NCBI GenBank assembly: GCA_051872335.1
Contig: JBJEDT010000037.1
Coordinates: forward strand, 151-64,150
DNA: 64,000 bases
Direction: 5' to 3'
DNA from: Bacilli bacterium
Lineage (GTDB): Bacteria; Bacillota_I; Bacilli_A; RFN20; CAG-826
The notes under the pieces: model-generated
Told to the model about the DNA's origin: nothing
Database searches by the model: none
The model's input: only the letters and a program-made list of their open reading frames with translations
Part shown: positions 18,039 to 34,736 of the stretch, one piece after another
How the letters are laid out: every line of letters begins with the position of its first letter
How positions within the stretch are numbered: position 1 is the first letter of the stretch
Program-made: the position numbers and the translations under genes

Positions 18039-18057
18039 AAGTTCCTCCTAAAATTTA

Positions 18058-18265
18058 AATAAAAAAGCATCCCTATATTCTAAGGACGCTTATATAAACG
18101 TGGTACCACCTTAGTTGAGAATAATAAATTATCCCCCACTCATTAAGTTTTAACGCAACTAACGTCTTAATTTCTTAAGATTGCTCCTAAATCGTATTTC
18201 CTTTGTTACTTCTTTTCACCAACCAGAAGTTCTCTTTAATAAAGTACTTTTATTTATTCAACGCA
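18058..18265 (-). promoter_or_regulatory. T-box riboswitch (Tyr)
   Basis: T-box AAGGTGGTACCACG (18099-18112), AGAGA/GGTGAA motifs, TAC specifier at 18194-18196. Confidence 0.92.
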
Positions 18266-19848: not shown

Positions 19849-21114
19849 TCATGATCTTATTTCCTCAACTTTATTCATCACATCGTTCATATTTTTAGAA
19901 GATAAAAATATAAATACTTGTTTTTCTTTTGTAAAACAATCTTTTGTTAAACTATTCAAATCATCAAGATAATGAAATTTTTTATTAAGTAATAAAAGCG
20001 ATGATGTTTTTTTATTGACACGTTCGTATAAAGGTAAAACATAAATATCATTTGCAAAATTTAATGCTTTTTTAAATTCATGTTTATAAAATAACAAACG
20101 TGAAAAACGATCGGGTTTAAAAAAGACGGTTAGCTTTAAACTAGGATATTTTTCTTTAATAAATTTTAAAGTTGCTTTAATCTCATTAGGATGATGCGCA
20201 TAATCGTCAATATATATATCCCCGTTTATTATCGTGGTATTAATTCGCCTATTTACACCGGCAAATTTTGCCAAATTTTCATTTAATAATTTAAATTCTA
20301 TATTATGTTCTAATCCATATGCAACAATAGATAGAGCATGTATAAAATTAAAAAATCCATAAAAAGGTAAAATTAATTTATCAATATATTCTTTCTTATG
20401 AAATAATTTACCTTCAATTATTTCGTTATCATGTTTTACATCTTTTAAATAATAATCAGCTTTTTTAGATGTTCCATATGTAATTATATTTTCATGTTTT
20501 ACTTTTTTATAGTCTTCGTAAGGTATATATATTTTATTAGCTTTGCTTAAAAATTTTTGAAAACTATTTATATAAGCTTTTTGGTTTTTAAAAAAATCGG
20601 TATGATCAAAATCAATATTAGTTAAAATACATTCTTTTGGAGTAAAGTTTAAAAAATTATTTTTATATTCACAAGCTTCAAAAACAATGCTTTCTTTATT
20701 ACCTCCAAATCCTATTCCATCTCCTCTTAACATTTCTATATTAATGATATTTTTAAATGTATCATAAAATAATCCAACTGTTGTCGTTTTACCATGTGTT
20801 CCACAAATAGCAATCGAATATTTATTTTTTATATAATCACTAAGAAAGTTTATATATGAAGTGGTATTCTTTTTATTAAATAAAAATTGGAATTTTGCAT
20901 TATCTTTATAGTAATTACCAATAATATAATTAAAATCTTTTTTGTACGAGAAATCATCAATTAATTCATATTGAATATTGTATTCTTCTAATAAATCTTG
21001 AGTAAAAAAATAATCGCTAATATCACAACCTGTAACATAATTACCATTGTCTTTTAAAATACGCGCTAAGGAAGACATTCCTGTCCCTTTTATACCAACT
21101 AAATAATATTTCAT
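19849..21114 (-). CDS. murC: UDP-N-acetylmuramate--L-alanine ligase
   Basis: VGIKGTGMSSLA, ICGTHGKTTT, EACEY, NIDFDHTD, DDYAHHPNEI; SD GGTGA before ATG 21114. Confidence 0.9.
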   Translation of the reverse strand: MKYYLVGIKGTGMSSLARILKDNGNYVTGCDISDYFFTQDLLEEYNIQYELIDDFSYKKDFNYIIGNYYKDNAKFQFLFNKKNTTSYINFLSDYIKNKYSIAICGTHGKTTTVGLFYDTFKNIINIEMLRGDGIGFGGNKESIVFEACEYKNNFLNFTPKECILTNIDFDHTDFFKNQKAYINSFQKFLSKANKIYIPYEDYKKVKHENIITYGTSKKADYYLKDVKHDNEIIEGKLFHKKEYIDKLILPFYGFFNFIHALSIVAYGLEHNIEFKLLNENLAKFAGVNRRINTTIINGDIYIDDYAHHPNEIKATLKFIKEKYPSLKLTVFFKPDRFSRLLFYKHEFKKALNFANDIYVLPLYERVNKKTSSLLLLNKKFHYLDDLNSLTKDCFTKEKQVFIFLSSKNMNDVMNKVEEIRS

Positions 21115-21118
21115 AAAA
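21086..21118 (-). repeat. Direct repeat copy 1 (murC 5' end)
   Basis: 31/33 identical to 22944-22976 by manual alignment. Confidence 0.9.
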
Positions 21119-21151
21119 ATCACCACTACATTATATGCAAGTGGTGATTTT
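21116..21151 (-). terminator. Hairpin between the cassette and murC, overlapping the murC SD
   Basis: 12-bp perfect arms AAAATCACCACT/AGTGGTGATTTT with 12-nt loop. Confidence 0.7.
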
Positions 21152-21157
21152 AAAATT

Positions 21158-21970
21158 TTATATAACTATTTTATACTTGAAATGTTTCTCTTGAAAATAA
21201 ATGTTCTTTTTAATTTCTTCTATTGAATATTCCTTATTATCAGTAACAACTATTAACTTATCTTCAATATCATTTTCTCTTTCAATAACTGCATATATTT
21301 TACCTACACAGTTAGTTACAGGCTCATCAACACCGAAGACATATGCATCTTGATATTCATCATCAGCAGCTTTAATTTCCTTTATATAACCATAATTTAT
21401 TGGATATATAATATCTTTATGTTTTGGGTGTATTGATCCAATTGGCCTATCAATATAAACTTTAACTTTCTTTCCAATATTAGTTTCCAACTTTTCTCTG
21501 ATAATTAATTTTTTTAATAATTTATATGCATCTTTTTCCAAATCTAGAAGCTGATAATTAATACTTTCCATCATTTTTTCTGTCGCTTGTTCAATGTCAA
21601 AAGTGTGATATATATTGTAATATGATACAATTTTCTTTGCATTAAAAAGTTTGAAAACTTCTCTGCTAGACAATTTATAGATTATTGACAAAGCTCTATA
21701 AATGTAACCAATCCAAAACATTTCATTTTTAGAATATTTAGTTTGTCCATAAGAAGAAGATCCGTATTCATTATCAATTTCATAAAAACAATCGTTTATG
21801 TCAAGTGCCATAACTAAAAAACTATAATCGTCGAATTTTTTTGATAAGTTTGATAGCATAAACCTTCTAATAAAAATCAAAGAACTACACTCGACTTTAT
21901 CTACTGATTCTTCAAATATTTTTCCTTGTATTTGACATAATTTTCTTTCATTAAAATCTAACTTTTTCAT
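21158..21970 (-). CDS. DUF3990-partner helical domain fused to an inorganic-pyrophosphatase-like domain
   Basis: N-half has FWIGYIYR...YHT motif; C-terminal about 110 aa has IDRPIGS.HP, YPINYGYI, DDEYQDAY, EDKLIV; ATGA overlap with upstream gene. Confidence 0.65.
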   Translation of the reverse strand: MKKLDFNERKLCQIQGKIFEESVDKVECSSLIFIRRFMLSNLSKKFDDYSFLVMALDINDCFYEIDNEYGSSSYGQTKYSKNEMFWIGYIYRALSIIYKLSSREVFKLFNAKKIVSYYNIYHTFDIEQATEKMMESINYQLLDLEKDAYKLLKKLIIREKLETNIGKKVKVYIDRPIGSIHPKHKDIIYPINYGYIKEIKAADDEYQDAYVFGVDEPVTNCVGKIYAVIERENDIEDKLIVVTDNKEYSIEEIKKNIYFQEKHFKYKIVI

Positions 21971-22818
21971 TTTAGCAATTCATCAATATATTGACCCTTT
22001 CCACGATATTCAATCCTAGCAACTTTTACTTTATTTAAGTTTATGTTATTATTTTCTAGTCTTTTATTTTTATACATTTCTTTTTCTTTGCTTGATAAGA
22101 AAAACAATTTAATAAAATCTAATTTTTTTAGAGCTATCTTTGATTTAATAACATATTGATTTCCTAAATTAGTAGCTGCTAAAGCATGTTCGCATTGTTC
22201 GTTTGTAATTGCTCCATCTACAAATTCAGAAATCAAATCAAACATTCTATTATCAGCAATGGGAGCTATTATAATATCTGCATTTTCAACTTTTTTGATA
22301 ATGCTAATTATCAATTCATTTTGAGTATAATTATGCAACCATCCTCTATAATATGCAATTGCTAACATCCATTCCGTATTAACATTAAATTTTTCAACTT
22401 TTAGTTTGTTTGTGTTTAATGAAAATGAATATACATATTTAGATGAAGTATTTGCTATATAAGTAGATGCTTGTTCAAAATTTTCCCCTAAATAAAATCC
22501 TCTCCCAAAATCATTGTTTTCTTTTGAATACTTTAAATCTAGTGGTAATTCGATGACGTTTCTTGCACCATGAAATAAAAGTTTAGAATTTCTTTTTTCA
22601 CAATCTTCATAAAATATTTGTTCATAGATTTTATTAATATTTATTCCTTTTTCTAATGCATAATTATAAATCGCATCGATGTTTTTTTCTTCAATTTCAG
22701 TTTTTTCGTTTTCCCATCTACTAATTGTATCTAATGAAACACCAATATTTAAAGCTAAATCTTCTTGTGTTAAAGATAACAACTCTCTAATAACTTTCAA
22801 CTCTTTATTAACACGCAT
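21967..22818 (-). CDS. Xre HTH fused to DUF3990 (ADP-ribosyltransferase-like) domain
   Basis: LTQEDLALNIGVSLDTISRWENE HTH; LFHGA...DFGRGFYLG..EQA, IIIAPIADNR, LGNQYVIKS motifs. Confidence 0.75.
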   Translation of the reverse strand: MRVNKELKVIRELLSLTQEDLALNIGVSLDTISRWENEKTEIEEKNIDAIYNYALEKGININKIYEQIFYEDCEKRNSKLLFHGARNVIELPLDLKYSKENNDFGRGFYLGENFEQASTYIANTSSKYVYSFSLNTNKLKVEKFNVNTEWMLAIAYYRGWLHNYTQNELIISIIKKVENADIIIAPIADNRMFDLISEFVDGAITNEQCEHALAATNLGNQYVIKSKIALKKLDFIKLFFLSSKEKEMYKNKRLENNNINLNKVKVARIEYRGKGQYIDELLK

Positions 22819-22840
22819 TTAAACCCCACCTTTCGATAGT

Positions 22841-22869
22841 ATTATATACAATTATAAACACAAAGTCAA
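22841..22869 (-). promoter_or_regulatory. Sigma-A promoter of the HTH-DUF3990 cassette
   Basis: TTGACT-N17-TATAAT followed by SD AAAGGTGGGG. Confidence 0.8.
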
Positions 22870-22924
22870 AACTTATATTTATTAAATGTCGAATACAAGT
22901 TATAGATTAATAAATTTAACGCCA

Positions 22925-22972
22925 TCATAACGAAATACCAGAACCTTTTATACCAATTAAATAATATTGCAT
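22925..22972 (-). pseudogene. murC: Truncated murC 5' fragment (direct repeat copy 2)
   Basis: Translates to MQYYLIGIKGSGISL* versus MurC MKYYLVGIKGTGMSSL; repeat core 22944-22976. Confidence 0.85.
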
Positions 22973-23340
22973 AAAATTACTATTAAAAAATATGAAATTA
23001 ATTTAATAATATGCCACTACCATTGTTATTATTTAATTTAAAAGCAGTAGTAATCTTTATTACTTAATTTATTTGTTTTTTAAAATATACACAAATTGAT
23101 CAATCTATGTTTGATTTATTATTTTAATAATTGCTTCCATTTAATCATAAAATGTTTTTCAATATTATAATTAATTAAATCTTTTCAAAAAGTTAAACTG
23201 ATGAAATTCGATTATATATCCATATTTTCATATTCTATTTATATTAAAAATTATAAATGATGCCACAAAAATCAAAATTATTGTTAAACAATAATATTTA
23301 TATTTAGAATAAAAATAGTTTATTTTCATATCTTAAATAT

Positions 23341-23889
23341 ATGATAAATAATTTAATTAAAGCATCAAAACACATATTAGTATTTATATTATTTTCATTT
23401 ATTGGATGGTTCTGGGAAACTATATTAGTTCTTATTTTATATAATTCAATTTCAAATATTGGCTTTCTTCATTTACCAATATGCCCTATATATGGAACAA
23501 CTATTTTGCTATGTTATTTACTGTTAGGTACACCAAATAATTTTAAGTTGCCTTTAAAACGATTATCAAATAAGAAATTAAAAACTATATTATATTTATT
23601 AATATTATTTATAGTTCCTACCATTATAGAAGTTATAGTTGGTAATTATTTTTATAATAAATATGGTATTGTTTTATGGTCTTATGAAGGCCTTCCTTTA
23701 ACAATAGGAAAATATATAAATCTATTTGTTTCTTTATTTTGGGCTGTTTGCATTTTCTTAATCATGAGATACCTAATTGAACCCATTTATAGATTTTTAA
23801 ATAATGTTAGTACTTTTAATATTTTAGGTCTTTCCTTAACATTTATTTTACTTACTGCAATAGATTTTATTATTTGTATAAAAAAATAA
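23341..23889 (+). CDS. Putative ABC transporter permease (CmpB/DUF1113-like membrane protein)
   Basis: FSFIGWFWE, GFLHLPICPIYG, LWSY motifs; about 5 TM helices. Confidence 0.7.
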   Translation: MINNLIKASKHILVFILFSFIGWFWETILVLILYNSISNIGFLHLPICPIYGTTILLCYLLLGTPNNFKLPLKRLSNKKLKTILYLLILFIVPTIIEVIVGNYFYNKYGIVLWSYEGLPLTIGKYINLFVSLFWAVCIFLIMRYLIEPIYRFLNNVSTFNILGLSLTFILLTAIDFIICIKK

Positions 23890-23951
23890 TAATGGGAATG
23901 TATTAAGATATTAAAAATCTTACATTCCCATCATTATAAAGGAGAAATTAA

Positions 23952-24602
23952 TTATTTTTCATTATTTGTTTCTTCAATGTCTTTTTTCCAATCTTTTGTT
24001 AAAGTTTTATTTTTTCTTATTTCAGAAACAGCTTCACAAAGACAAACATAATTTGCTTTAACACCATCTTTATTATTTTTATAATTAACTGCTAAATCTT
24101 TATTTATTCCTAGTTTTGATGCTTCAGCAATTGTGTCAATATTAGCACCTATAAAAATAACTTCCCATTTCTTATTTTTTCTTAATCGTTCAATGATTTT
24201 TCTAACTGTTTTGTAGTTAAACTTATAACTTGAATTTTCTTGTCCATCAGTTATTATAACAAGTAACGTTTTTGTTATTGTTTTTGATTGTTCGTCTTTT
24301 GCTTGTTTTCTTTCAATATAGGTTGTTGTACTTCCTATTGCATCAAGTAAAGCTGTAGAACCAAATGGTTCATAATCTTCTTTTGTCAATTCATGAATCT
24401 TTTTAATATTAACTCGATTATGAATTGTTCTTGAGTTATCACTAAACATAACTGTTGTAACTATTGCTTCCCCCTCCTCATTTTTTTGTTTTTTAATAAG
24501 TGAATTGAAACCATCAATAGTTTCTTGTCTTAAATCGGACATTGACCCACTTTCATCTAAAATGAATACTAATTCTGTAAATTCTTTTTTCATATCTTTC
24601 AT
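23952..24602 (-). CDS. Stand-alone von Willebrand factor A domain protein
   Basis: MIDAS DESGSM, TALLDAIG, IITDGQENSS, FIGAN. Confidence 0.88.
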   Translation of the reverse strand: MKDMKKEFTELVFILDESGSMSDLRQETIDGFNSLIKKQKNEEGEAIVTTVMFSDNSRTIHNRVNIKKIHELTKEDYEPFGSTALLDAIGSTTTYIERKQAKDEQSKTITKTLLVIITDGQENSSYKFNYKTVRKIIERLRKNKKWEVIFIGANIDTIAEASKLGINKDLAVNYKNNKDGVKANYVCLCEAVSEIRKNKTLTKDWKKDIEETNNEK

Positions 24603-24643
24603 TCCTTTCTTTATAGCTTTATTGTAAATAAAAAGGAATTAAA

Positions 24644-24668
24644 AAAAGTCACTTCTGAAGTGACTTTT
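24644..24668. promoter_or_regulatory. Perfect palindrome between HTH gene and vWA gene (operator and/or terminator)
   Basis: AAAAGTCACTTC-T-GAAGTGACTTTT; a -10-like TACAAT lies just downstream on the minus strand. Confidence 0.6.
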
Positions 24669-24669
24669 A

Positions 24670-25239
24670 TCAATTAATAGAAAATAATTTATAACTCATT
24701 TCTTCTAAAATTAGATTAATATTAAATACATTATAAATGCTTTCTTCAATACAATATCTAATGACTAAATCTCGTGCTATTGATAATGATAAAGTATAAC
24801 CAGCTTTAGCTAATAAATCTAAAGAATCATCTAAATTTAATTTTAACCCTATGCACATTTGAATTGCTGTATCTTTTGTTGGTTGATAATTTTCATTATA
24901 TCTAATTTTAGAAAATGTCTGTTTAGAAATACTAGCTCTTTTATATACGTCAGGATCTTTAAAGTTCTTTCTATCTATAATTTTAAAAACTGTTTTTTGC
25001 CAAGAATCAGTTGCATCTTCGATAATATTTTCTAAAGAACGTTTGTTTTTTGAGATTGATTTATTTTCTTCACATATTGTTAAACATTCACAATTTTTAA
25101 CAAAATGTTTATCCATATCAGAAAACAAAGAATCTGCAGAATTATCTTCAAAGTTATTTTCAATAATTAAATTATTACATATGTATAACTTAATTTTAGA
25201 AATTAAATCTTTATTTATTTTTAAATGCATTGCCATCAC
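24670..25239 (-). CDS. Xre-like HTH regulator (type often fused to macro domains)
   Basis: DPDVYKRASISKQTFSKIR...YQPTKDTA...LLAKAGYTLS motif. Confidence 0.65.
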   Translation of the reverse strand: MMAMHLKINKDLISKIKLYICNNLIIENNFEDNSADSLFSDMDKHFVKNCECLTICEENKSISKNKRSLENIIEDATDSWQKTVFKIIDRKNFKDPDVYKRASISKQTFSKIRYNENYQPTKDTAIQMCIGLKLNLDDSLDLLAKAGYTLSLSIARDLVIRYCIEESIYNVFNINLILEEMSYKLFSIN

Positions 25240-25298
25240 CTATATTTATTTTACCATAAGCTTTGTTATTAATTAATCGTTTATGTTAGTTGGTTTTA

Positions 25299-25326
25299 TA
25301 AAAAAAGAGCAAATACTTGCTCTTTT
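25299..25326 (-). terminator. Intrinsic terminator of alaS-ruvX-yrzB
   Basis: AAAAGAGCAA-ATAC-TTGCTCTTTT inverted repeat with A-run. Confidence 0.75.
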
Positions 25327-25329
25327 AAA

Positions 25330-25602
25330 TTAGTCTAATCCAAAATGTTCTCTTGCTTCATCATCTTCTTGGAAAGTATTTAATACTTCCTCAACCATAT
25401 CCCACTCTTCATCAGAGTCAATATCTTCTAGATGTCCATCATCATAATATCTTGAAGCAAATATTTCTTCAGGATTTGAAGGATCATAATATAAGACATA
25501 TTGAATATCTGAATCATCTCCAGCAAATGTAAATAAGATTTCAAATCTATTTTCAGTGCCGTCTTCATCAGTAATAATAATTTGTTTATCGTCTATAATC
25601 AT
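25330..25602 (-). CDS. yrzB: DUF1292 (YrzB-like) acidic protein
   Basis: ITDEDGTE.RFEILFTF, IDSDEEWDMVEEVLNTF. Confidence 0.88.
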   Translation of the reverse strand: MIIDDKQIIITDEDGTENRFEILFTFAGDDSDIQYVLYYDPSNPEEIFASRYYDDGHLEDIDSDEEWDMVEEVLNTFQEDDEAREHFGLD

Positions 25603-25612
25603 TTTATTTTCC

Positions 25613-26035
25613 TCACTTTCTTCTTGCTAAATATGATTCTAGAATAACTACAGCCGCTTGTTGATCTATAACTTTTTTTCGTTTGTTTCTAGATAAGTCA
25701 GCCTCTAACAACCGATTATTTGCAATCATTGTTGTCATTCTTTCATCAATCATTGTAATCTTAAAATTAGGATTAGCTTCTAATAATTGGTCTTTAAAAC
25801 GTAAACAAGACTCAGCTCGTTCTCCCTTTGTACCGTTCATATTCAATGGTAAACCAAGAGCAATTTCTTCAATGTTATCTTTTTTAGTTATTTCTAAAAC
25901 TCTTTGAATAGCTGCTTTGTAATTACCTTCATTAAAGCGAAATGTTTCAATACCATAAGCATACCATCCAGCACTATCGCTTTCTGCAATTCCAAGAGTA
26001 CGTGTTCCTAAATCTAGTCCTAATGCTTTACTCAT
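25613..26035 (-). CDS. ruvX: YqgF/RuvX-family nuclease (YrrK)
   Basis: LGLDLGTRTLGIA, GLPLNMNG, DERMTT, IDQQAAVVILE. Confidence 0.93.
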   Translation of the reverse strand: MSKALGLDLGTRTLGIAESDSAGWYAYGIETFRFNEGNYKAAIQRVLEITKKDNIEEIALGLPLNMNGTKGERAESCLRFKDQLLEANPNFKITMIDERMTTMIANNRLLEADLSRNKRKKVIDQQAAVVILESYLARRK

Positions 26036-26058: not shown

Positions 26059-28662
26059 TTATGCAAGAATAGTCTTAATTTTTGCAACAACTTCATCAAG
26101 TTTTGATAAATCCTTAACAGCACCACTAGCCATATCAGGTCTTCCTCCACCTGAGCCACCAAGAATTGCTGTAATTTCTTTTACTATATTTCCTGCTTTA
26201 ATATTATTAACTAATTCTTGACCTACAAAAACTACTAAAGGATGTACTCCATTATCATCACCAATCAAAACTATTAAAGATTTTTTATGTAAACCTTTTA
26301 ATAAATCCATTGATTTTAATAATGCGTCTCTATTACCTTTAATAACTTTTGCTAACAAATAAGTATCATTAATGCATTCAAAACTATTAGCTAAATCTTT
26401 AGCACTATTTGATGCTTCTTTATCAAGTAATGCTTTATTTTGTTTCTTTAATTCTTCTTTTTCATTTAAAGAAGCTTTCAATTTATCTTTTACTTCATAA
26501 ACTGAACTTACACCTAACATAGAGCCTGCTTGTGCTAAAATGTTTTCTTTATTCTTTAATAGTTCATATGCTGATTTACCAGTTCTAGCTTGAATTCTTC
26601 TAACTCCAGAAGCAATACTTTCTTCATATTCAATTGCAAAAGCACCTACATCTTCTGAATTGAAAACATGTGTACCACCACATAATTCTTTAGAAACATC
26701 ACCAAAGCAAACAACACGTACAACATCACCATATTTTTCATCAAATAAAGCTGTTGCACCAACCTTTTTTGCTTCTTCAATAGGTAAAATTAAAGTTTTT
26801 TCTTCAATTGCTTGATCAATATATTCATTAACTAATTTTTCAACTGTAGCTAATTCATTTTCAGTTAATTTAGCATTGTGTGAGAAATCAAATCTCATGA
26901 TATTTTCATCAACATAAGAACCTTGTTGGTGAATATGATCTCCTAATACTTCAATTAGAGCAGCTTGTAATAAGTGACAACTTGAATGGTTTCTCATAAT
27001 TCTTATTCTTCTTTGTTTATTGATAGATAAATTCAATTCATCGCCAACTTTTAATTCACCAAACAATACTCTTACATGATGCAAATGTTGTTTATTTGGA
27101 GCTTTAGAAACATTTAATACTTCACATTCTGTATCTTCATTATAAAATTTACCGGTATCAGCAACTTGCCCACCCATTTCAGCGTAAAAATTAGTATTAT
27201 CGAGGATGACATCACCTTCATCATCCAATGAATCAACTTTTACTCCATCTTTAAATAAACCTATAACTTTTCCTTTAGTATCAGCCATATCATAACTAAA
27301 GTTAGATTCACTTGTAAATGCCATTAAATCTGCTGATTGTTTATTCATAGATTGAACATCTGATCTAGAAGCTCTTGCTCTTTCCTTTTGTTGTTCCATA
27401 TTTTCATTAAAGCCTTCTAAATCAACCTTAACATTTTGTTCTTGAGCAATTTCAATAGTTAATTCAATAGGGAATCCATATGTATCATAAAGTTTAAAAG
27501 CATCAGCACCACTTAATGTAGTTGTATTTTCAAGCATTTTCTTTAATAATGATTCACCACTATTTAAAGTTCTTAAGAATTTTTCTTCTTCAGCATGAAT
27601 CATTTTTGTTACATGTTCTTGATGTTCTTGTAAATATGGATAAAAATCTTTCATCATATCAACAACTACGGGTACTAAAGTATATAAGAAGGCATTTGTA
27701 ATACCTAATTTACGTCCATATCTCATTGCACGTCTCAAAATTCTTCTTAATACATATCCTCTACCTTCGTTAGAAAAACTTGCGCCATCACTTAAGGCAA
27801 ATGTACATGTTCTAATATGATCAGCGATAACTCTAAAGCACATTTTATGTGTATCATCATATTTATCTTTTGTTAATTTTAAAACACTTTCAATAATTGG
27901 ATAAAATAAATCTGTTTCAAAATTTGTTTCAGTTTCTTGTAAAACACAAGCAATTCTTTCTAATCCAGCACCTGTATCAATGTTTTTATTAGGTAATTCT
28001 TTATAATCTTCCCTTGCAACACCTTCAACAGCATTATATTGAGAAAAAACAATACCCCAAATTTCAATGTATCTATCATTTTCTAAGTCTTCTTTTAATA
28101 AGCGAATACCTATATGTTCAGGATCATATTTTTCTCCTCTATCAAAAAATACTTCAGTATTTGGTCCACATGGTCCTTCTCCAATTTGCCAGAAATTACC
28201 TTCTAATGGTATTAAATGGTCCTCATTAACTCCTAAATCCATCCAACATTTCTTTGTAACATTATCAGTTGGTAGATAAGTAAAATAAAGTTTATCTAAT
28301 GGAATTCCAAAATATTTATCATTAGTTAAAATTTCAAAAGCCCATGGAATCATTTCAAGTCTAAAATAATCACCAATTGAAAAGTTGCCTAACATTTCAA
28401 AAAAAGTATGGTGTCTAGCTGTATGTCCAACATTTTCAATATCATTTGTTCTAATAGATTTTTGAACGTTAGTAATTCTTTTGTTTTTAGGCATTTCACT
28501 ACCATCAAAATATTTTTTTAATGCAGCTACACCTGAATTAATCCATAGTAAAGTTGGATCATTATGAGGTACTAATGAAGCACCTGGTTCAATGTAATGA
28601 CCTTTACTTTCCCAGAACTTTAACCAAGTTGTTCTAATTTCATTTGCAGTTAATTTTTTCAT
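26059..28662 (-). CDS. alaS: Alanine--tRNA ligase
   Basis: HHTFFEMLGNFS, NHSSCHLLQ, KELCGGTH, GGSGGGRPDMA. Confidence 0.98.
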   Translation of the reverse strand: MKKLTANEIRTTWLKFWESKGHYIEPGASLVPHNDPTLLWINSGVAALKKYFDGSEMPKNKRITNVQKSIRTNDIENVGHTARHHTFFEMLGNFSIGDYFRLEMIPWAFEILTNDKYFGIPLDKLYFTYLPTDNVTKKCWMDLGVNEDHLIPLEGNFWQIGEGPCGPNTEVFFDRGEKYDPEHIGIRLLKEDLENDRYIEIWGIVFSQYNAVEGVAREDYKELPNKNIDTGAGLERIACVLQETETNFETDLFYPIIESVLKLTKDKYDDTHKMCFRVIADHIRTCTFALSDGASFSNEGRGYVLRRILRRAMRYGRKLGITNAFLYTLVPVVVDMMKDFYPYLQEHQEHVTKMIHAEEEKFLRTLNSGESLLKKMLENTTTLSGADAFKLYDTYGFPIELTIEIAQEQNVKVDLEGFNENMEQQKERARASRSDVQSMNKQSADLMAFTSESNFSYDMADTKGKVIGLFKDGVKVDSLDDEGDVILDNTNFYAEMGGQVADTGKFYNEDTECEVLNVSKAPNKQHLHHVRVLFGELKVGDELNLSINKQRRIRIMRNHSSCHLLQAALIEVLGDHIHQQGSYVDENIMRFDFSHNAKLTENELATVEKLVNEYIDQAIEEKTLILPIEEAKKVGATALFDEKYGDVVRVVCFGDVSKELCGGTHVFNSEDVGAFAIEYEESIASGVRRIQARTGKSAYELLKNKENILAQAGSMLGVSSVYEVKDKLKASLNEKEELKKQNKALLDKEASNSAKDLANSFECINDTYLLAKVIKGNRDALLKSMDLLKGLHKKSLIVLIGDDNGVHPLVVFVGQELVNNIKAGNIVKEITAILGGSGGGRPDMASGAVKDLSKLDEVVAKIKTILA

Positions 28663-28681
28663 AAACTTTCTCCTTTAAAAT

Positions 28682-28885
28682 AAAAAAATTCCTTAAAACA
28701 AGGAACGAAATAATCGCGGTACCATCCTATTTCATATCTTACGATATGCACCTTAATAAAACTTTAACGCAGTAAACGTGATTTTTCAATCAACTCTCCA
28801 AAGTAGCACACTTTATTTTAATTAAAACTTTTCACCAACCAGTTTTTCTCTAGAAATATAAATAAAGCATTTCTTTTTCAACAAG
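28682..28885 (-). promoter_or_regulatory. T-box riboswitch (Ala)
   Basis: T-box AGGATGGTACCGCG (28715-28728), AGAGA/GGTGAA motifs, GCT specifier at 28805-28807. Confidence 0.9.
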
Positions 28886-31552: not shown

Positions 31553-32008
31553 TTACATCCCCCACATTTCTTTAGAATCTAACATTAATGTAAAAGGACC
31601 ATCATTTGTAAAACTAATTTTCATATCAGCACCAAATTGTCCTCTACTAATTTGTCCAAATTGATTTTCTAATTCTTTACAAAATTCATCATATAATATA
31701 GAAGCTTTATCAAATGCTAATGCATTAACAAAAGAAGGTCTTCTTCCTTTAGCAACATCAGCATATAAAGTAAATTGTGAAACACACATTATTTCTCCAT
31801 TAATATCTTTTAATGATAAATTAGTTTTACCATTTTCATCAGGAAAAACACGTAAAGTAATAATTTTATCGATGAATTTCTTTGCAAGATTTATATCATC
31901 ACCTTGGGTAAAACTAATTAAAATTAAAAAACCTGAATCTATGGAAGAAAAAACTTTATCATCTATTGTTAAATAACAATCTTTAACATTTTGAATAACA
32001 GCCCTCAT
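31553..32008 (-). CDS. dtd: D-aminoacyl-tRNA deacylase
   Basis: MRAVIQ, SQFTL, FGADM, NDGPFT. Confidence 0.95.
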   Translation of the reverse strand: MRAVIQNVKDCYLTIDDKVFSSIDSGFLILISFTQGDDINLAKKFIDKIITLRVFPDENGKTNLSLKDINGEIMCVSQFTLYADVAKGRRPSFVNALAFDKASILYDEFCKELENQFGQISRGQFGADMKISFTNDGPFTLMLDSKEMWGM

Positions 32009-32117
32009 TTTAATTCCTCCATACTTTTATTATTATACAAGTTAATTAAAGTTATTTTAATACTTTTATATAAAAACAAAGAAAAATCTTGCTATAATAA
32101 AAAAGGTAGGTGATGCT

Positions 32118-33371
32118 ATGAATACACCATTAGCTTATAGGATTAGACCTTATTATTTAACAGATATTATTGGTCAAGAGCATTTAGTTGGTAAAGATGG
32201 TTTTTTAACAAGTTGTGTTGAATCTAAAACTTTAGTTTCAATTATATTTTATGGACAACCTGGATGTGGTAAAACTACTCTTGCAGAAGCTTTTGCTCGT
32301 TCAATGGATGTTCACTTTATAAAATTAAATGCAGTTACAAATAACAAAAAAGATTTAGAAAATGCTATTGAAGAATCAAAACTTTTTCCTTCTACAATAA
32401 TTATAATGGACGAAGTTCATCGTTTAAATAAAGATAAACAAGACTTACTTTTACCATATGTTGAAAGTGGTGAAATCTATTTAATAGGTGCTACTACTTC
32501 TAATCCTTATATTGCTATAAATCCTGCTATTAGAAGTAGATGTCATTTATTAGAAGTAAAATCATTGACAACTGAAAATGTAATAAACGGATTAAAAAGA
32601 GCATTAAGTCATCCTCAAGGTCTTAATAATGTATCAATTGATGAAGAAGCTTTATTAGCAATAGCAAAATCATCTTCAGGTGATATGCGTTTTGCCATCA
32701 ATACTTTAGAAGTTGCTTCTTTAAATGGCAAAAGAACACATATTACATTAGATATTGTTAAATCATTAAACAAAGTACCTAATTTTTTAGCAGATAAAAA
32801 TGAAGAAGATCATTATAATAATGTTTCCGCTTTACAAAAATCAATACGTGGAAGTGATGTTGACGCAGCTTTATATTATCTAGCTAAATTATGTGCTGCT
32901 GGTGACCTTGATAGTATCGAAAGACGCCTATTAGTAACAGCTTATGAAGATGTTGGACTAGCTAATCCTAATGCTGTAAATAGATGTGCAACAGCAATTG
33001 AAAGTGCTAAAAAAGTTGGTTTTCCTGAAGCTATAATTCCACTAGCTTTTACAGTTTGTGATTTAGCTTTATCTCCTAAATCAACTGCAAGTCATGACGC
33101 AATTGGTAGGGCAATGGAACAAATAAATTCAATGCCTTTAGATGTATTAGATTATTTAAAATATACACCTGTGAATTTAAATGAACAAGATAAGTACCCA
33201 TATGATAGACCTGATTTATGGGAAAAGATTCAATATCTTCCTACATTAATAAAAGATATGCAATTTTATAAGCCTTCAAATAAATCAGCTTATGAAAGAG
33301 CATTAAATGAAAACTATGAACGTTTGCGTAAAATCAATCGTTCCAGTAATTTAAGAGATCTTAAAAAATAA
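32118..33371 (+). CDS. rarA: Replication-associated recombination AAA+ ATPase (MgsA/RarA)
   Basis: PLAYRIRP, GQPGCGKTT, DEVHR, SALQKSIRGSD. Confidence 0.95.
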   Translation: MNTPLAYRIRPYYLTDIIGQEHLVGKDGFLTSCVESKTLVSIIFYGQPGCGKTTLAEAFARSMDVHFIKLNAVTNNKKDLENAIEESKLFPSTIIIMDEVHRLNKDKQDLLLPYVESGEIYLIGATTSNPYIAINPAIRSRCHLLEVKSLTTENVINGLKRALSHPQGLNNVSIDEEALLAIAKSSSGDMRFAINTLEVASLNGKRTHITLDIVKSLNKVPNFLADKNEEDHYNNVSALQKSIRGSDVDAALYYLAKLCAAGDLDSIERRLLVTAYEDVGLANPNAVNRCATAIESAKKVGFPEAIIPLAFTVCDLALSPKSTASHDAIGRAMEQINSMPLDVLDYLKYTPVNLNEQDKYPYDRPDLWEKIQYLPTLIKDMQFYKPSNKSAYERALNENYERLRKINRSSNLRDLKK

Positions 33372-34736
33372 TTATAAATTATCTCGGCCCTTTGCTTGGG
33401 GCCTTTTTATTATGTAAAAAGTTTCTTCTAAATCAAATGGATATAAAGGATGTAAATATGATTTATTGAAGACTCTTATATTTGCTAGAAGTAAAAACAA
33501 AAGTGTAATGAACAATATATAGCCATATTTTCCAAATAAAAATACAACAATAATAAAAATGTATTTAATGAATTTGTTTGTAAGTGATAATTCGAAAGAA
33601 GGAGTTACAAATCCACATAAGCCTTCTATGGCACATAAAAGCATAACCTCTTCATATAAAAAGCCTTGCTTAATACTAACTTCACTCAAAATTATTGCCG
33701 ATATTAAGCCAATTGTTGAAACTAATACATTAGGAATATGTATTGCCGACATTCTAATAACGTCAAATAAAAATTCTACTATTAGTACTTGAGCTAACAA
33801 AAATGATGATAAGCTTATTGTCATATATTTTTGAAGGCCATTATTAAAAGGTGTTGTTGATAATAAACAAAACCATGTTGGAATTAAAAAGAAAGAAACT
33901 ATAAGACATAAAAATCTTACTAATCTCGAAAAAGTACCTAATATGGGGTTTAAACGAAATTCTTCAATATGTTTAGTATGATCAAATAAATTTGAAGGAG
34001 TAATTAAAGCACTGCACGAATTATCAACTAATATTATGAACTTCTTATTTAATAAGGAAATACATGCAACATCAGGTCTTTCTGTGTAACGTACTAAAGG
34101 AAATGGATTATATCTTTGTTTTACTAGTAGCTCTTCTAAAGCTTTATCAGTCATAATTAATGAATTAACATCAATACTATTTAATTTTTCTCTTAGTTCA
34201 GATAATATCGAATTATCTACTATTTCTTTAATATAAATAAGAGAAACATTAGTTTTAGAAATTTTGCCTATCACGAATGATTCAATAATTAGATTATCTG
34301 ATTTTATCCTTTTTCTAATAAGAGCAATATTATTTATTATATTTTCATTAAAACTATCTTTACTTCCTCTAACAGATTTTTCAATGGCTGGTTCAGAGAT
34401 ACTTCTAATAGGAAATAGCGCAGAATCAAAAATAATAGCAAAATCAAAATCTGGTGATAAAAAAACACTATTTCCACTTAAAATATTATCTATAATTTTA
34501 GTAGTTTCTTTTTCTATTGTATGATTTAATAAAATCATATTTTCTTTCATACAACAATTTGTAAATTCATTAAAGTATTTATCAATAACATAAATAATTT
34601 TTATATCTGTGACAGTTTTACAAAAGTATAAAAAACATCTCTTACTATTAATAATTAAGTTCTTTCTTACAATATCAAAATTTTTACCAATCAGCCTGTC
34701 ATTTATTATCTTTATCGTGTTTTTAAAATAACTCAT
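33372..34736 (-). CDS. spoVAF: SpoVAF / GerA-family spore germination protein
   Basis: RSISEP..EKSVRGSKDSFNE, NPFPLVRYTERPD, TPSFELS; last gene of spoVA operon. Confidence 0.82.
   Translation of the reverse strand: MSYFKNTIKIINDRLIGKNFDIVRKNLIINSKRCFLYFCKTVTDIKIIYVIDKYFNEFTNCCMKENMILLNHTIEKETTKIIDNILSGNSVFLSPDFDFAIIFDSALFPIRSISEPAIEKSVRGSKDSFNENIINNIALIRKRIKSDNLIIESFVIGKISKTNVSLIYIKEIVDNSILSELREKLNSIDVNSLIMTDKALEELLVKQRYNPFPLVRYTERPDVACISLLNKKFIILVDNSCSALITPSNLFDHTKHIEEFRLNPILGTFSRLVRFLCLIVSFFLIPTWFCLLSTTPFNNGLQKYMTISLSSFLLAQVLIVEFLFDVIRMSAIHIPNVLVSTIGLISAIILSEVSIKQGFLYEEVMLLCAIEGLCGFVTPSFELSLTNKFIKYIFIIVVFLFGKYGYILFITLLFLLLANIRVFNKSYLHPLYPFDLEETFYIIKRPQAKGRDNL

Follow-up and report, generated by a model that had tools for sequence, protein, structure and literature searches.

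A duplicated murC start bounds a putative toxin-antitoxin cassette in a Bacilli genome and recurs between other modules in its relatives

Defence and toxin-antitoxin (TA) genes are often found in small islets devoid of mobility genes, and how they arrive there is an open question. Here we analyze a stretch of 64,000 nucleotides (positions 151 to 64,150 of contig JBJEDT010000037.1, assembly GCA_051872335.1, Bacilli bacterium; hereafter, the window) in which a two-gene cassette, putatively of TA or abortive-infection type, lies between two copies of the start of murC, an essential gene of which only one copy is intact. The repeated block, which spans ~110-135 nt from the control region into the 5′ part of the gene, is designated here the murC-start repeat (MSR). 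Because murC is encoded on the minus strand, positions upstream of it have higher coordinates.

The murC locus is akin to cassette arrays, dif modules and recombinase-free defence islets, and its distinctive feature appears to be the use of a duplicated essential-gene start as the module boundary. With integron arrays it shares small promoter-proximal modules, often promoterless or of TA type, a repeated recombination-prone site and a shuffled module order, but it has no intI, attI or attC, its repeated site is part of an essential gene, some of its modules carry their own promoter, and no enzyme has been identified. Cis-mobilizable elements (CIMEs) derive from integrative and conjugative or integrative and mobilizable elements whose integrase is known, and most often insert at gene or tRNA 3′ ends. 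The att-like direct repeats around integration-gene-free DNA and the tandem units at a single chromosomal target that result from CIMEs and tandem accretion are also seen at murC, where, however, we found neither a parent element nor an integrase. SpyCIM1, which inserts in mutL, carries an integrase gene of its own and blocks expression for as long as it stays inserted; the resemblance lies in insertion at a gene 5′ end with an effect on expression, and the difference in that at murC the start and promoter are duplicated and the gene is intact. In the minimal mobile elements of Neisseria, cargo that varies and lacks mobility genes is reportedly swapped by homologous recombination across conserved flanks. 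Core-gene-flanked defence hotspots are likewise described, in the available sections of the source, as mobility-gene-free cargo exchanged through conserved flanks (PMC10121019). In both of these systems the flanks are two different core genes and nothing is duplicated, whereas here the start of one conserved gene is copied and accompanies the module, with a distal flank that varies. The dif modules of Acinetobacter plasmids are reported to be discrete units, often TA systems, that have no recombinase of their own, lie between repeated sites and occur in shuffled arrangements (PMC6449649, PMC13141974). The modules at murC are similarly discrete, often of TA type, recombinase-free, bracketed and shuffled, but dif modules use 28-nt XerC/XerD sites on plasmids, while the repeated site here is a chromosomal gene start with no plasmid match. 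The portions available to us of the literature on murC hotspots, defence islands, integrases, DUF3990 and DUF3791 contain no account of insertion at the 5′ end of murC, which is not proof that none has been published.

Two copies of the murC start

The core of the MSR is a 33-nt direct repeat whose two copies in the window (Table 1) agree at 31 of 33 positions. No match to this 33-mer with up to three mismatches occurred in 100 dinucleotide-preserving shuffles of the window, and a fuzzy scan of the 1.58-Mb genome (up to seven substitutions), complemented with nhmmer, returned the two copies only; no third MSR was found near the DUF1292 gene (~25300) or elsewhere in the genome. On the coding side, similarity between the copies extends over 58 nt at 78% identity (21061-21118 and 22919-22976), whereas 5′ of the ATG it is weaker, with 18 of 26 positions in agreement across a 1-nt gap in an alignment read by eye. 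A covariance model of the block (R1) aligns ~108 nt of both copies (21067-21175 and 22925-23032), both of which belong to its training set. Inspection by eye also revealed a short AT-rich palindrome within the repeat core.

The copy upstream of the cassette is a decayed stub. Its start codon lies at 22972, rather than at 22976, its -10 element has decayed to TATTTT and its Shine-Dalgarno sequence to AGTAAT, and the hairpin that characterizes the live copy is gone (fold z-score of -0.6). The stub core matches the murC of its own genome at 27 of 29 positions, as compared to a mean identity of 0.81 with the murC genes of other genomes, but its tail matches the resident gene at only 16 of 49. Judged by eye, this tail and its junction to the operator-like block of the cassette resemble a stub of another genome (G043_s0). 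The possibility that stubs act as functional leader peptides was rejected, given that start codons are lost in several of them (G041_s2, G041_s3, G103_s1, G140_s1) and that in-frame stops fall at differing places. Only two open reading frames (ORFs), which overlap on the minus strand, lie between the copies (cassette extent taken as 21119-22924). No integrase or transposase is encoded there, and none of the four PF00589 matches in the genome falls on the window contig. An earlier note on this DNA had described the direct repeats, with weaker similarity reaching into the Shine-Dalgarno and promoter region, a dead MurC N-terminus upstream of the intact start, and a lone DUF3990 module without integrase or transposase between them, and on each of these points our analysis is in agreement with it.

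Table 1. Features of the murC locus in the window, and module arrays in related genomes listed in the order reported (s0 to s3, numbered stubs; SLFN, Schlafen-like gene)
Feature	Position or genome	Strand	Remarks
Intact murC-like gene	19849..21114	-	421 aa from the ATG at 21114; Pfam Mur_ligase, Mur_ligase_M, Mur_ligase_C
Live MSR	21067..21175	-	A-tract, hairpin, -10 box, Shine-Dalgarno, ATG and first ~16 codons; R1 114.8 bits (training sequence)
33-nt repeat, live copy	21086..21118		31/33 identical to stub copy
Hairpin	21118..21149	-	Arms 21140-21149 and 21118-21127; loop holds TATAAT (21130-21135)
Gene 2, putative antitoxin or partner	21158..21970	-	Helical DUF3791-like N-terminal domain; C-terminal inorganic-pyrophosphatase-like fold
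Gene 1, putative autoregulated toxin	21967..22818	-	XRE-type helix-turn-helix (HTH) and DUF3990; Pfam HTH_3 E 2.1e-9, DUF3990 E 6.9e-32
Cassette control region	22841..22901	-	Operator-like AACTTGTATTCGACATTT (22901-22884), then TTGACT-17-TATAAT (22869-22841)
Decayed MSR stub	22925..23032	-	R1 62.1 bits (training sequence); ORF 22972..22925 reads MQYYLIGIKGSGISL and a stop
33-nt repeat, stub copy	22944..22976		2 mismatches
Accessory segment distal to stub	23341..25239		CmpB-like membrane protein (+), VWA protein (-), HTH protein (-); Pfam
Array	G041		rplS, s1, cassette, s2, AAA_14-DUF4143 (opposite strand), s3, SLFN_AlbA_2 ... 152-aa gene, MSR-murC
Array	G043		ABC, s0, AAA_14, s1, cassette, s2, SLFN, contig end; murC contig begins at residue 56
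Array	G042		SLFN, s1, cassette, s2, insertion sequence (DDE_Tnp_1); no murC found in genome
Array	G044		Cassette and Fic, s1, AbiEii pair, MSR-murC
Array	G031		MgtC, s1, SLFN and 152-aa gene, MSR-murC
Array	G103		Enolase, s1, AbiEii pair, MSR-murC
Array	G140		GNAT, s1, AbiEii pair, MSR-murC
Array	G083		AAA_14, s1, 350 nt, MSR-murC
Array	G027		Stub and murC start, both located at contig ends

Based on its Mur ligase domains, best-matching family and synteny, we assign the intact gene as a divergent member of murC. The best NCBIfam family is by far TIGR01082 (murC), which covers residues 2-374 with 246.5 bits, below the cut-off of 335.1, and the order murC-LacI-tyrS is common to the window and its relatives. 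The longest ORF reaches a GTG at 21126. Ahead of the start codon the live MSR holds a hairpin with a predicted fold energy of -17.8 kcal/mol (z-score of -5.3), followed by a U-run, with the Shine-Dalgarno GGTGAT (21119-21124) embedded in its 3′ arm 5 nt ahead of the ATG. Across 22 copies of the MSR, 80.8% of hairpin cells pair, versus 31-41% after a shift of the partner by one or two columns, and four pairs are altered on both sides. The same block of hairpin, TATAAT, GGTGAT and ATG also precedes murC where the upstream genes are unrelated (L004, L005, L009, L010, L013, L014, L018 and L023), and in a sample of 151 genomes from the order, 49 had an R1 match. These comparisons identify the live copy as the native murC control region, kept across the order with or without the cassette. 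The suggestion that a replacement gene start is a feature of the cassette itself, as of elements that integrate into essential genes, is therefore not upheld, since the block is native to murC and present in many cassette-free relatives.

The promoter design is kept across the order (L004-L023): the loop of the strong hairpin carries TATAAT, and the 3′ arm carries the Shine-Dalgarno, 5 nt short of the ATG. This layout implies a very short leader, and possibly serves to insulate murC from upstream transcription. The distribution of murC among assemblies is patchy, with matches in 14 of 41 related genomes and in 4 of the 24 belonging to the window's own family.

MSR-bracketed modules in related genomes

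Upstream of murC, extra MSR copies separate modules of TA or defence type in 10 genomes, the window's included, with members of four survey families among them (f1, f4, f7 and f8; Table 1). This set is made up of the extended cassette loci and the survey genomes with multiple matches, the second matches in G026 and G029 being left out. A scan of genome contigs with the DUF3990 protein yielded 15 loci, and in L068, L069 and L070 MSR copies with broken coding parts are found on both sides of the cassette. Among the 49 R1-positive genomes of the survey, eight had at least two matches, and in five of these tandem copies lay on one contig, under strict filters that missed weak stubs. The bracketed modules comprise the window-type cassette, AbiEii pairs, a Schlafen-like gene, AAA_14-DUF4143 and Fic. 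Every stub is oriented as murC, and the distal flank is different in every genome. The Schlafen-like gene of G041 appears to be split over two contig ends, and the two stubs around the cassette of G042, in a genome lacking a detectable murC, suggest that cell-wall genes were lost and stubs left behind. Pfam scans of the array neighbours in the genomes scanned revealed no recombinase, and neither the cassette protein nor the MSR motif had a match in viral contigs, plasmids or phages. A weak R1 match in G002 (C130) was discarded as the P-loop region of an ABC-ATPase.

The presence of the same architecture in independent assemblies of other genomes makes it very improbable that the duplication was generated by chimeric assembly or by the collapse of a repeat, even though the genome under study is in 55 contigs and related assemblies break at the arrays. 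With 31 of 33 positions in common and flanks that diverge, the two copies are not a collapsed identical repeat, and contigs from two other sequencing runs span most of the cassette interior, at 98.4% (X1, 21286-22897) and 98.7% identity (X4, 21458-22915). A further run (X2) contains flank pieces at 97-100% identity, with almost no depth over the cassette and no contig across it, and does not constitute evidence of an empty site. The joints listed for these runs, with sides of 20-47 nt and low support, were not used.

Comparison of the stubs provides information on how they arose. Beyond the GIKG motif, most stub tails are 0.62-0.97 identical to the stub tails of other genomes and 0.29-0.47 identical to murC, and this likeness across genomes indicates that stubs travel with modules and are not formed anew each time. 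The stub cores of the window and of G103 (25/28 with the resident murC; 0.64 with others) resemble instead the resident gene, which fits a crossover inside the MSR or a later gene conversion. Similarity fades gradually, and differently from one stub to the next, with no fixed boundary visible between resident-like and foreign sequence. Such a boundary would be expected if the modules were minimal CIME-like or dif-module-like elements integrated site-specifically at an attB in the murC start, mobilized in trans by a host Xer-type or helper integrase, with the MSR copies as attL and attR. Site-specific integration would explain why direct repeats surround recombinase-free modules, in several families invariably in a single orientation and at the start of one and the same gene; four tyrosine recombinases are encoded elsewhere in the genome, and the Xer-dependent dif modules with TA cargo reported in PMC6449649 set a precedent. 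We nonetheless deem it unlikely, as no recombinase lies beside any array examined, at ~110-135 nt the repeat greatly exceeds a typical core site, and no circle junction was seen in the sequencing runs, of which only contigs were used and which covered at most 0.21 of words.

The modules and their hosts are incongruent in several respects. The order of the cassette and the ATPase module is reversed between L068 and L070, while the corresponding blocks retain 82-90% nucleotide identity. The two cassette proteins of the window share 82-84% and 78-80% identity with their counterparts in G041-G043, where the host genes are distant (murC 33-35% in G041 and G043; LacI 30% and TyrS 48% in G043), and only 75-78% and 60-64% with those of L071 and L082, where the host genes are closer (murC 41-42%, LacI 62-65%). 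Cassette identity hence ranks in reverse of host identity, a pattern that fits horizontal transfer and that runs counter to an in situ history, in which the murC promoter and start would have been duplicated locally in an ancestor, and cassette and stubs then passed on vertically, homogenized by gene conversion and lost from some lineages, without mobility. Cassette and murC are adjacent in four lineages (window, L071, L082 and L023), as that history would predict. Stub tails common to different genomes would also follow from it, and the very uneven decay of the window stub suggests the gene conversion that it invokes. The permuted module order, the different modules that occupy the murC-proximal slot in each genome and the distal flanks, which are never alike, however, are difficult to reconcile with descent in place, which we consider less probable still than site-specific integration.

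Cassette-free relatives bear on the same question. In G002, which belongs to the same genus and has flanks 93-94% identical at the nucleotide level, the cassette is not found in the assembly, whose contigs end at the points that correspond to 21008 and 25440 of the window; this is suggestive of movement, but is not proof of it. In G008, from another genus, DUF1292, a 114-aa ORF and murC follow each other with neither cassette nor stub. The gene order alaS-ruvX-DUF1292-cassette-murC-LacI-tyrS of L071 corresponds to that of the window without the segment at 23341-25239 and without the stub.

The earlier note had read the murC 5′ end as an attachment site or recombination hotspot, and the islet as minimal and trans-mobilised or as a decayed island, with alternative cargo to be looked for upstream of murC in relatives. 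The hotspot is substantiated by the 10 array genomes, the permuted order and the reversed similarity ranking, and comparative data back both the minimal islet and the alternative cargo (AbiEii, Schlafen-like, AAA_14-DUF4143 and Fic modules). A site-specific att reaction, on the other hand, is not demonstrated: neither a cognate integrase nor a fixed crossover point, a circle or an empty-site allele was seen, and no integrase was found beside the arrays scanned in other genomes.

A proposed docking site at murC

The explanation we favour, with a probability of roughly 0.5, is that the cassette is a horizontally acquired, self-regulated module of TA or abortive-infection type, inserted through homology at a recurring, murC-anchored docking site where modules are separated by MSRs. 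We infer the recombination pathway, as well as the promoter, terminator and insulator roles of the MSR and the TA function of the cassette, from sequence comparison. Conservation of the MSR at the nucleotide level across genera would enable an MSR-module-MSR fragment to recombine by homology at the resident murC start. A double crossover between this donor and the single resident MSR would leave, as the first copy, resident sequence up to the crossover followed by the decayed tail of the donor, that is, a dead stub, and as the second copy the hairpin, promoter and start of the donor joined to the resident murC. The essential gene would in this way remain intact and with a full control region. 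The layout predicted from a double crossover is the one observed, and no dedicated enzyme would be needed. Repeated insertion would then build arrays, and recombination between MSRs could delete, circularize or reorder their modules.

The hairpin could also explain why insertion 5′ of an essential gene is tolerated. It would terminate transcription coming from the upstream module and conceal the Shine-Dalgarno in any read-through RNA, whereas transcripts initiated from the -10 element in the loop would lack the 5′ arm and leave the Shine-Dalgarno free, so that murC would be insulated from upstream insertions. More tentatively, we envisage a recombinase-free, homology-addressed system in which defence or TA modules carry the highly conserved MSR. 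It would act at once as a portable homology arm directed at murC starts in different genera, as a replacement control region that preserves the essential gene upon every insertion, and as a terminator-promoter insulator between modules, generating integron-like arrays without an integrase.

Several observations weigh against homology-guided docking. For exchange of the RecA type, homology arms of ~100 nt with 75-90% identity are short. The resident-like core expected from a crossover within the MSR fails in G031_s1 (21/29 with its own murC versus 0.77 with others) and in G044_s1 (25/29 versus 0.88). In the window, the promoter half of the stub (17/25, hairpin lost) is far more decayed than its core (27/29), and with such uneven decay one simple insertion is insufficient, so that gene conversion or selection against an upstream promoter must be invoked. 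The stub-free L071 indicates that cassette and murC can be adjacent without any duplication, and their adjacency may be old or vertical in that lineage. The distance between the window and the G041-G044 genomes is judged from gene identities. No conspecific empty site was found, the 27 loci returned by a scan of metagenome contigs with MurC being all at 40% identity or less, and neither an excised circle nor its junction was seen in the contigs of runs with the limited word coverage given above. Lastly, the R1 training set took in stubs, and all genomes are assemblies, in many of which contigs end at the arrays.

The locus offers a testable answer to the question of islet arrival for one group of gut Bacilli, in which the start of an essential gene would be copied with each module and reused as its docking site. 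If true, this would explain how islets without recombinases come to lie at a defined address, and how an essential gene tolerates repeated 5′ insertion by means of an insulated promoter inside a terminator hairpin; duplicated gene starts would, moreover, provide a search rule for similar hotspots elsewhere.

Cassette genes and neighbouring DNA

Analysis of the two cassette genes points to a putative autoregulated TA or abortive-infection-type pair. The DUF3990 domain of gene 1 scores 110.7 bits against a Pfam gathering threshold of 32.2. According to the available parts of two papers, DUF3990 is listed in the Pfam ADP-ribosyltransferase (ART) clan (PMC7955679) and is the C-terminal domain of the Serratia Rhs family protein Rhs5 (PMC4524185). 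In PADLOC, gene 1 matches PDC-M13A/B, PDC-M10A and PDC-M42A (E 1.4e-12), the first two scoring above PDC-M42A, and gene 2 matches PDC-M42B (E 2e-8), so that both genes of the candidate system PDC-M42 (DUF3990-like and DUF3791-like) are matched on adjacent genes. The Pfam matches of gene 2 to DUF3791 (E 0.0036) and Pyrophosphatase (E 0.0075; 16.5 bits versus 23.5) are both below cut-off. Its AF2 model (pLDDT 86.6) combines a helical N-terminal domain with a C-terminal barrel that resembles family-I pyrophosphatases (Foldseek E 2e-5, TM(target) 0.4-0.5; PDB profile search E 0.016). A pyrophosphatase-like fold in the C-terminal half (21158-21660), together with a DUF3791-like domain and beside an ART-clan protein, is an unusual pairing. 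The partner might act on a nucleotide-derived modification, and the pair is a candidate for a new toxin and antidote chemistry.

The cassette has a control region of its own (Table 1). Its promoter is the best match in 20900-25700, with 11 of 12 positions, and the 18-nt block AACTTGTATTCGACATTT, which lies just 5′ of the -35 element, is likely the operator for the HTH domain of gene 1. Colinear homology with other cassettes starts at 22901, the outer edge of this block, and the control block is kept in L068-L071.

A second HTH-DUF3990/DUF3791 pair, 42-43% identical, is present in the same genome (contig C25 of G000, 31866-33586, equivalent to L067, 1867-3587). Its DUF3791 gene matches gene 2 only over residues 1-138, and the C-terminal domain differs. 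Neither flanking direct repeats nor an MSR were found at this second pair, which indicates that the duplication is not a general property of DUF3990 cassettes. MSRs were likewise not found at the distant relatives of the cassette (48-50% identity, L074-L081).

The earlier note had placed the element at 21086..22997. The repeats and the cassette fall within these limits, but the DNA that the window has in excess of the syntenic L071, where DUF1292 adjoins the cassette, also takes in the segment at 23341-25239, located between DUF1292 and the stub. This segment is phage-flavoured, with matches to phrog_7371 (E 1.2e-52, VWA protein) and phrog_4031 (E 2.3e-12, HTH protein). In G001, G002, G008 and G019 no VWA counterpart was found, and CmpB gave one weak match only, on another contig of G008 (E 3.4e-5).

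Two minor observations concern control regions elsewhere. A weak MSR-like block of promoter and Shine-Dalgarno precedes a gene on contig C73 of G083 (L098, reverse strand, ~2534-2612). Its product begins with MVINIIIGIIDSGLG and has no Pfam match at E 1e-5, but this start presumably resembles the N-terminus of glutamate racemase (MurI), and the MSR-type promoter design may be common to other cell-wall genes. Within the window, stretches of ~110 nt that are probably T-box-type leaders lie 5′ of alaS (~28650-28780) and tyrS (~18040-18180), and resemble several other places in G001 and G002 at 72-82% identity.

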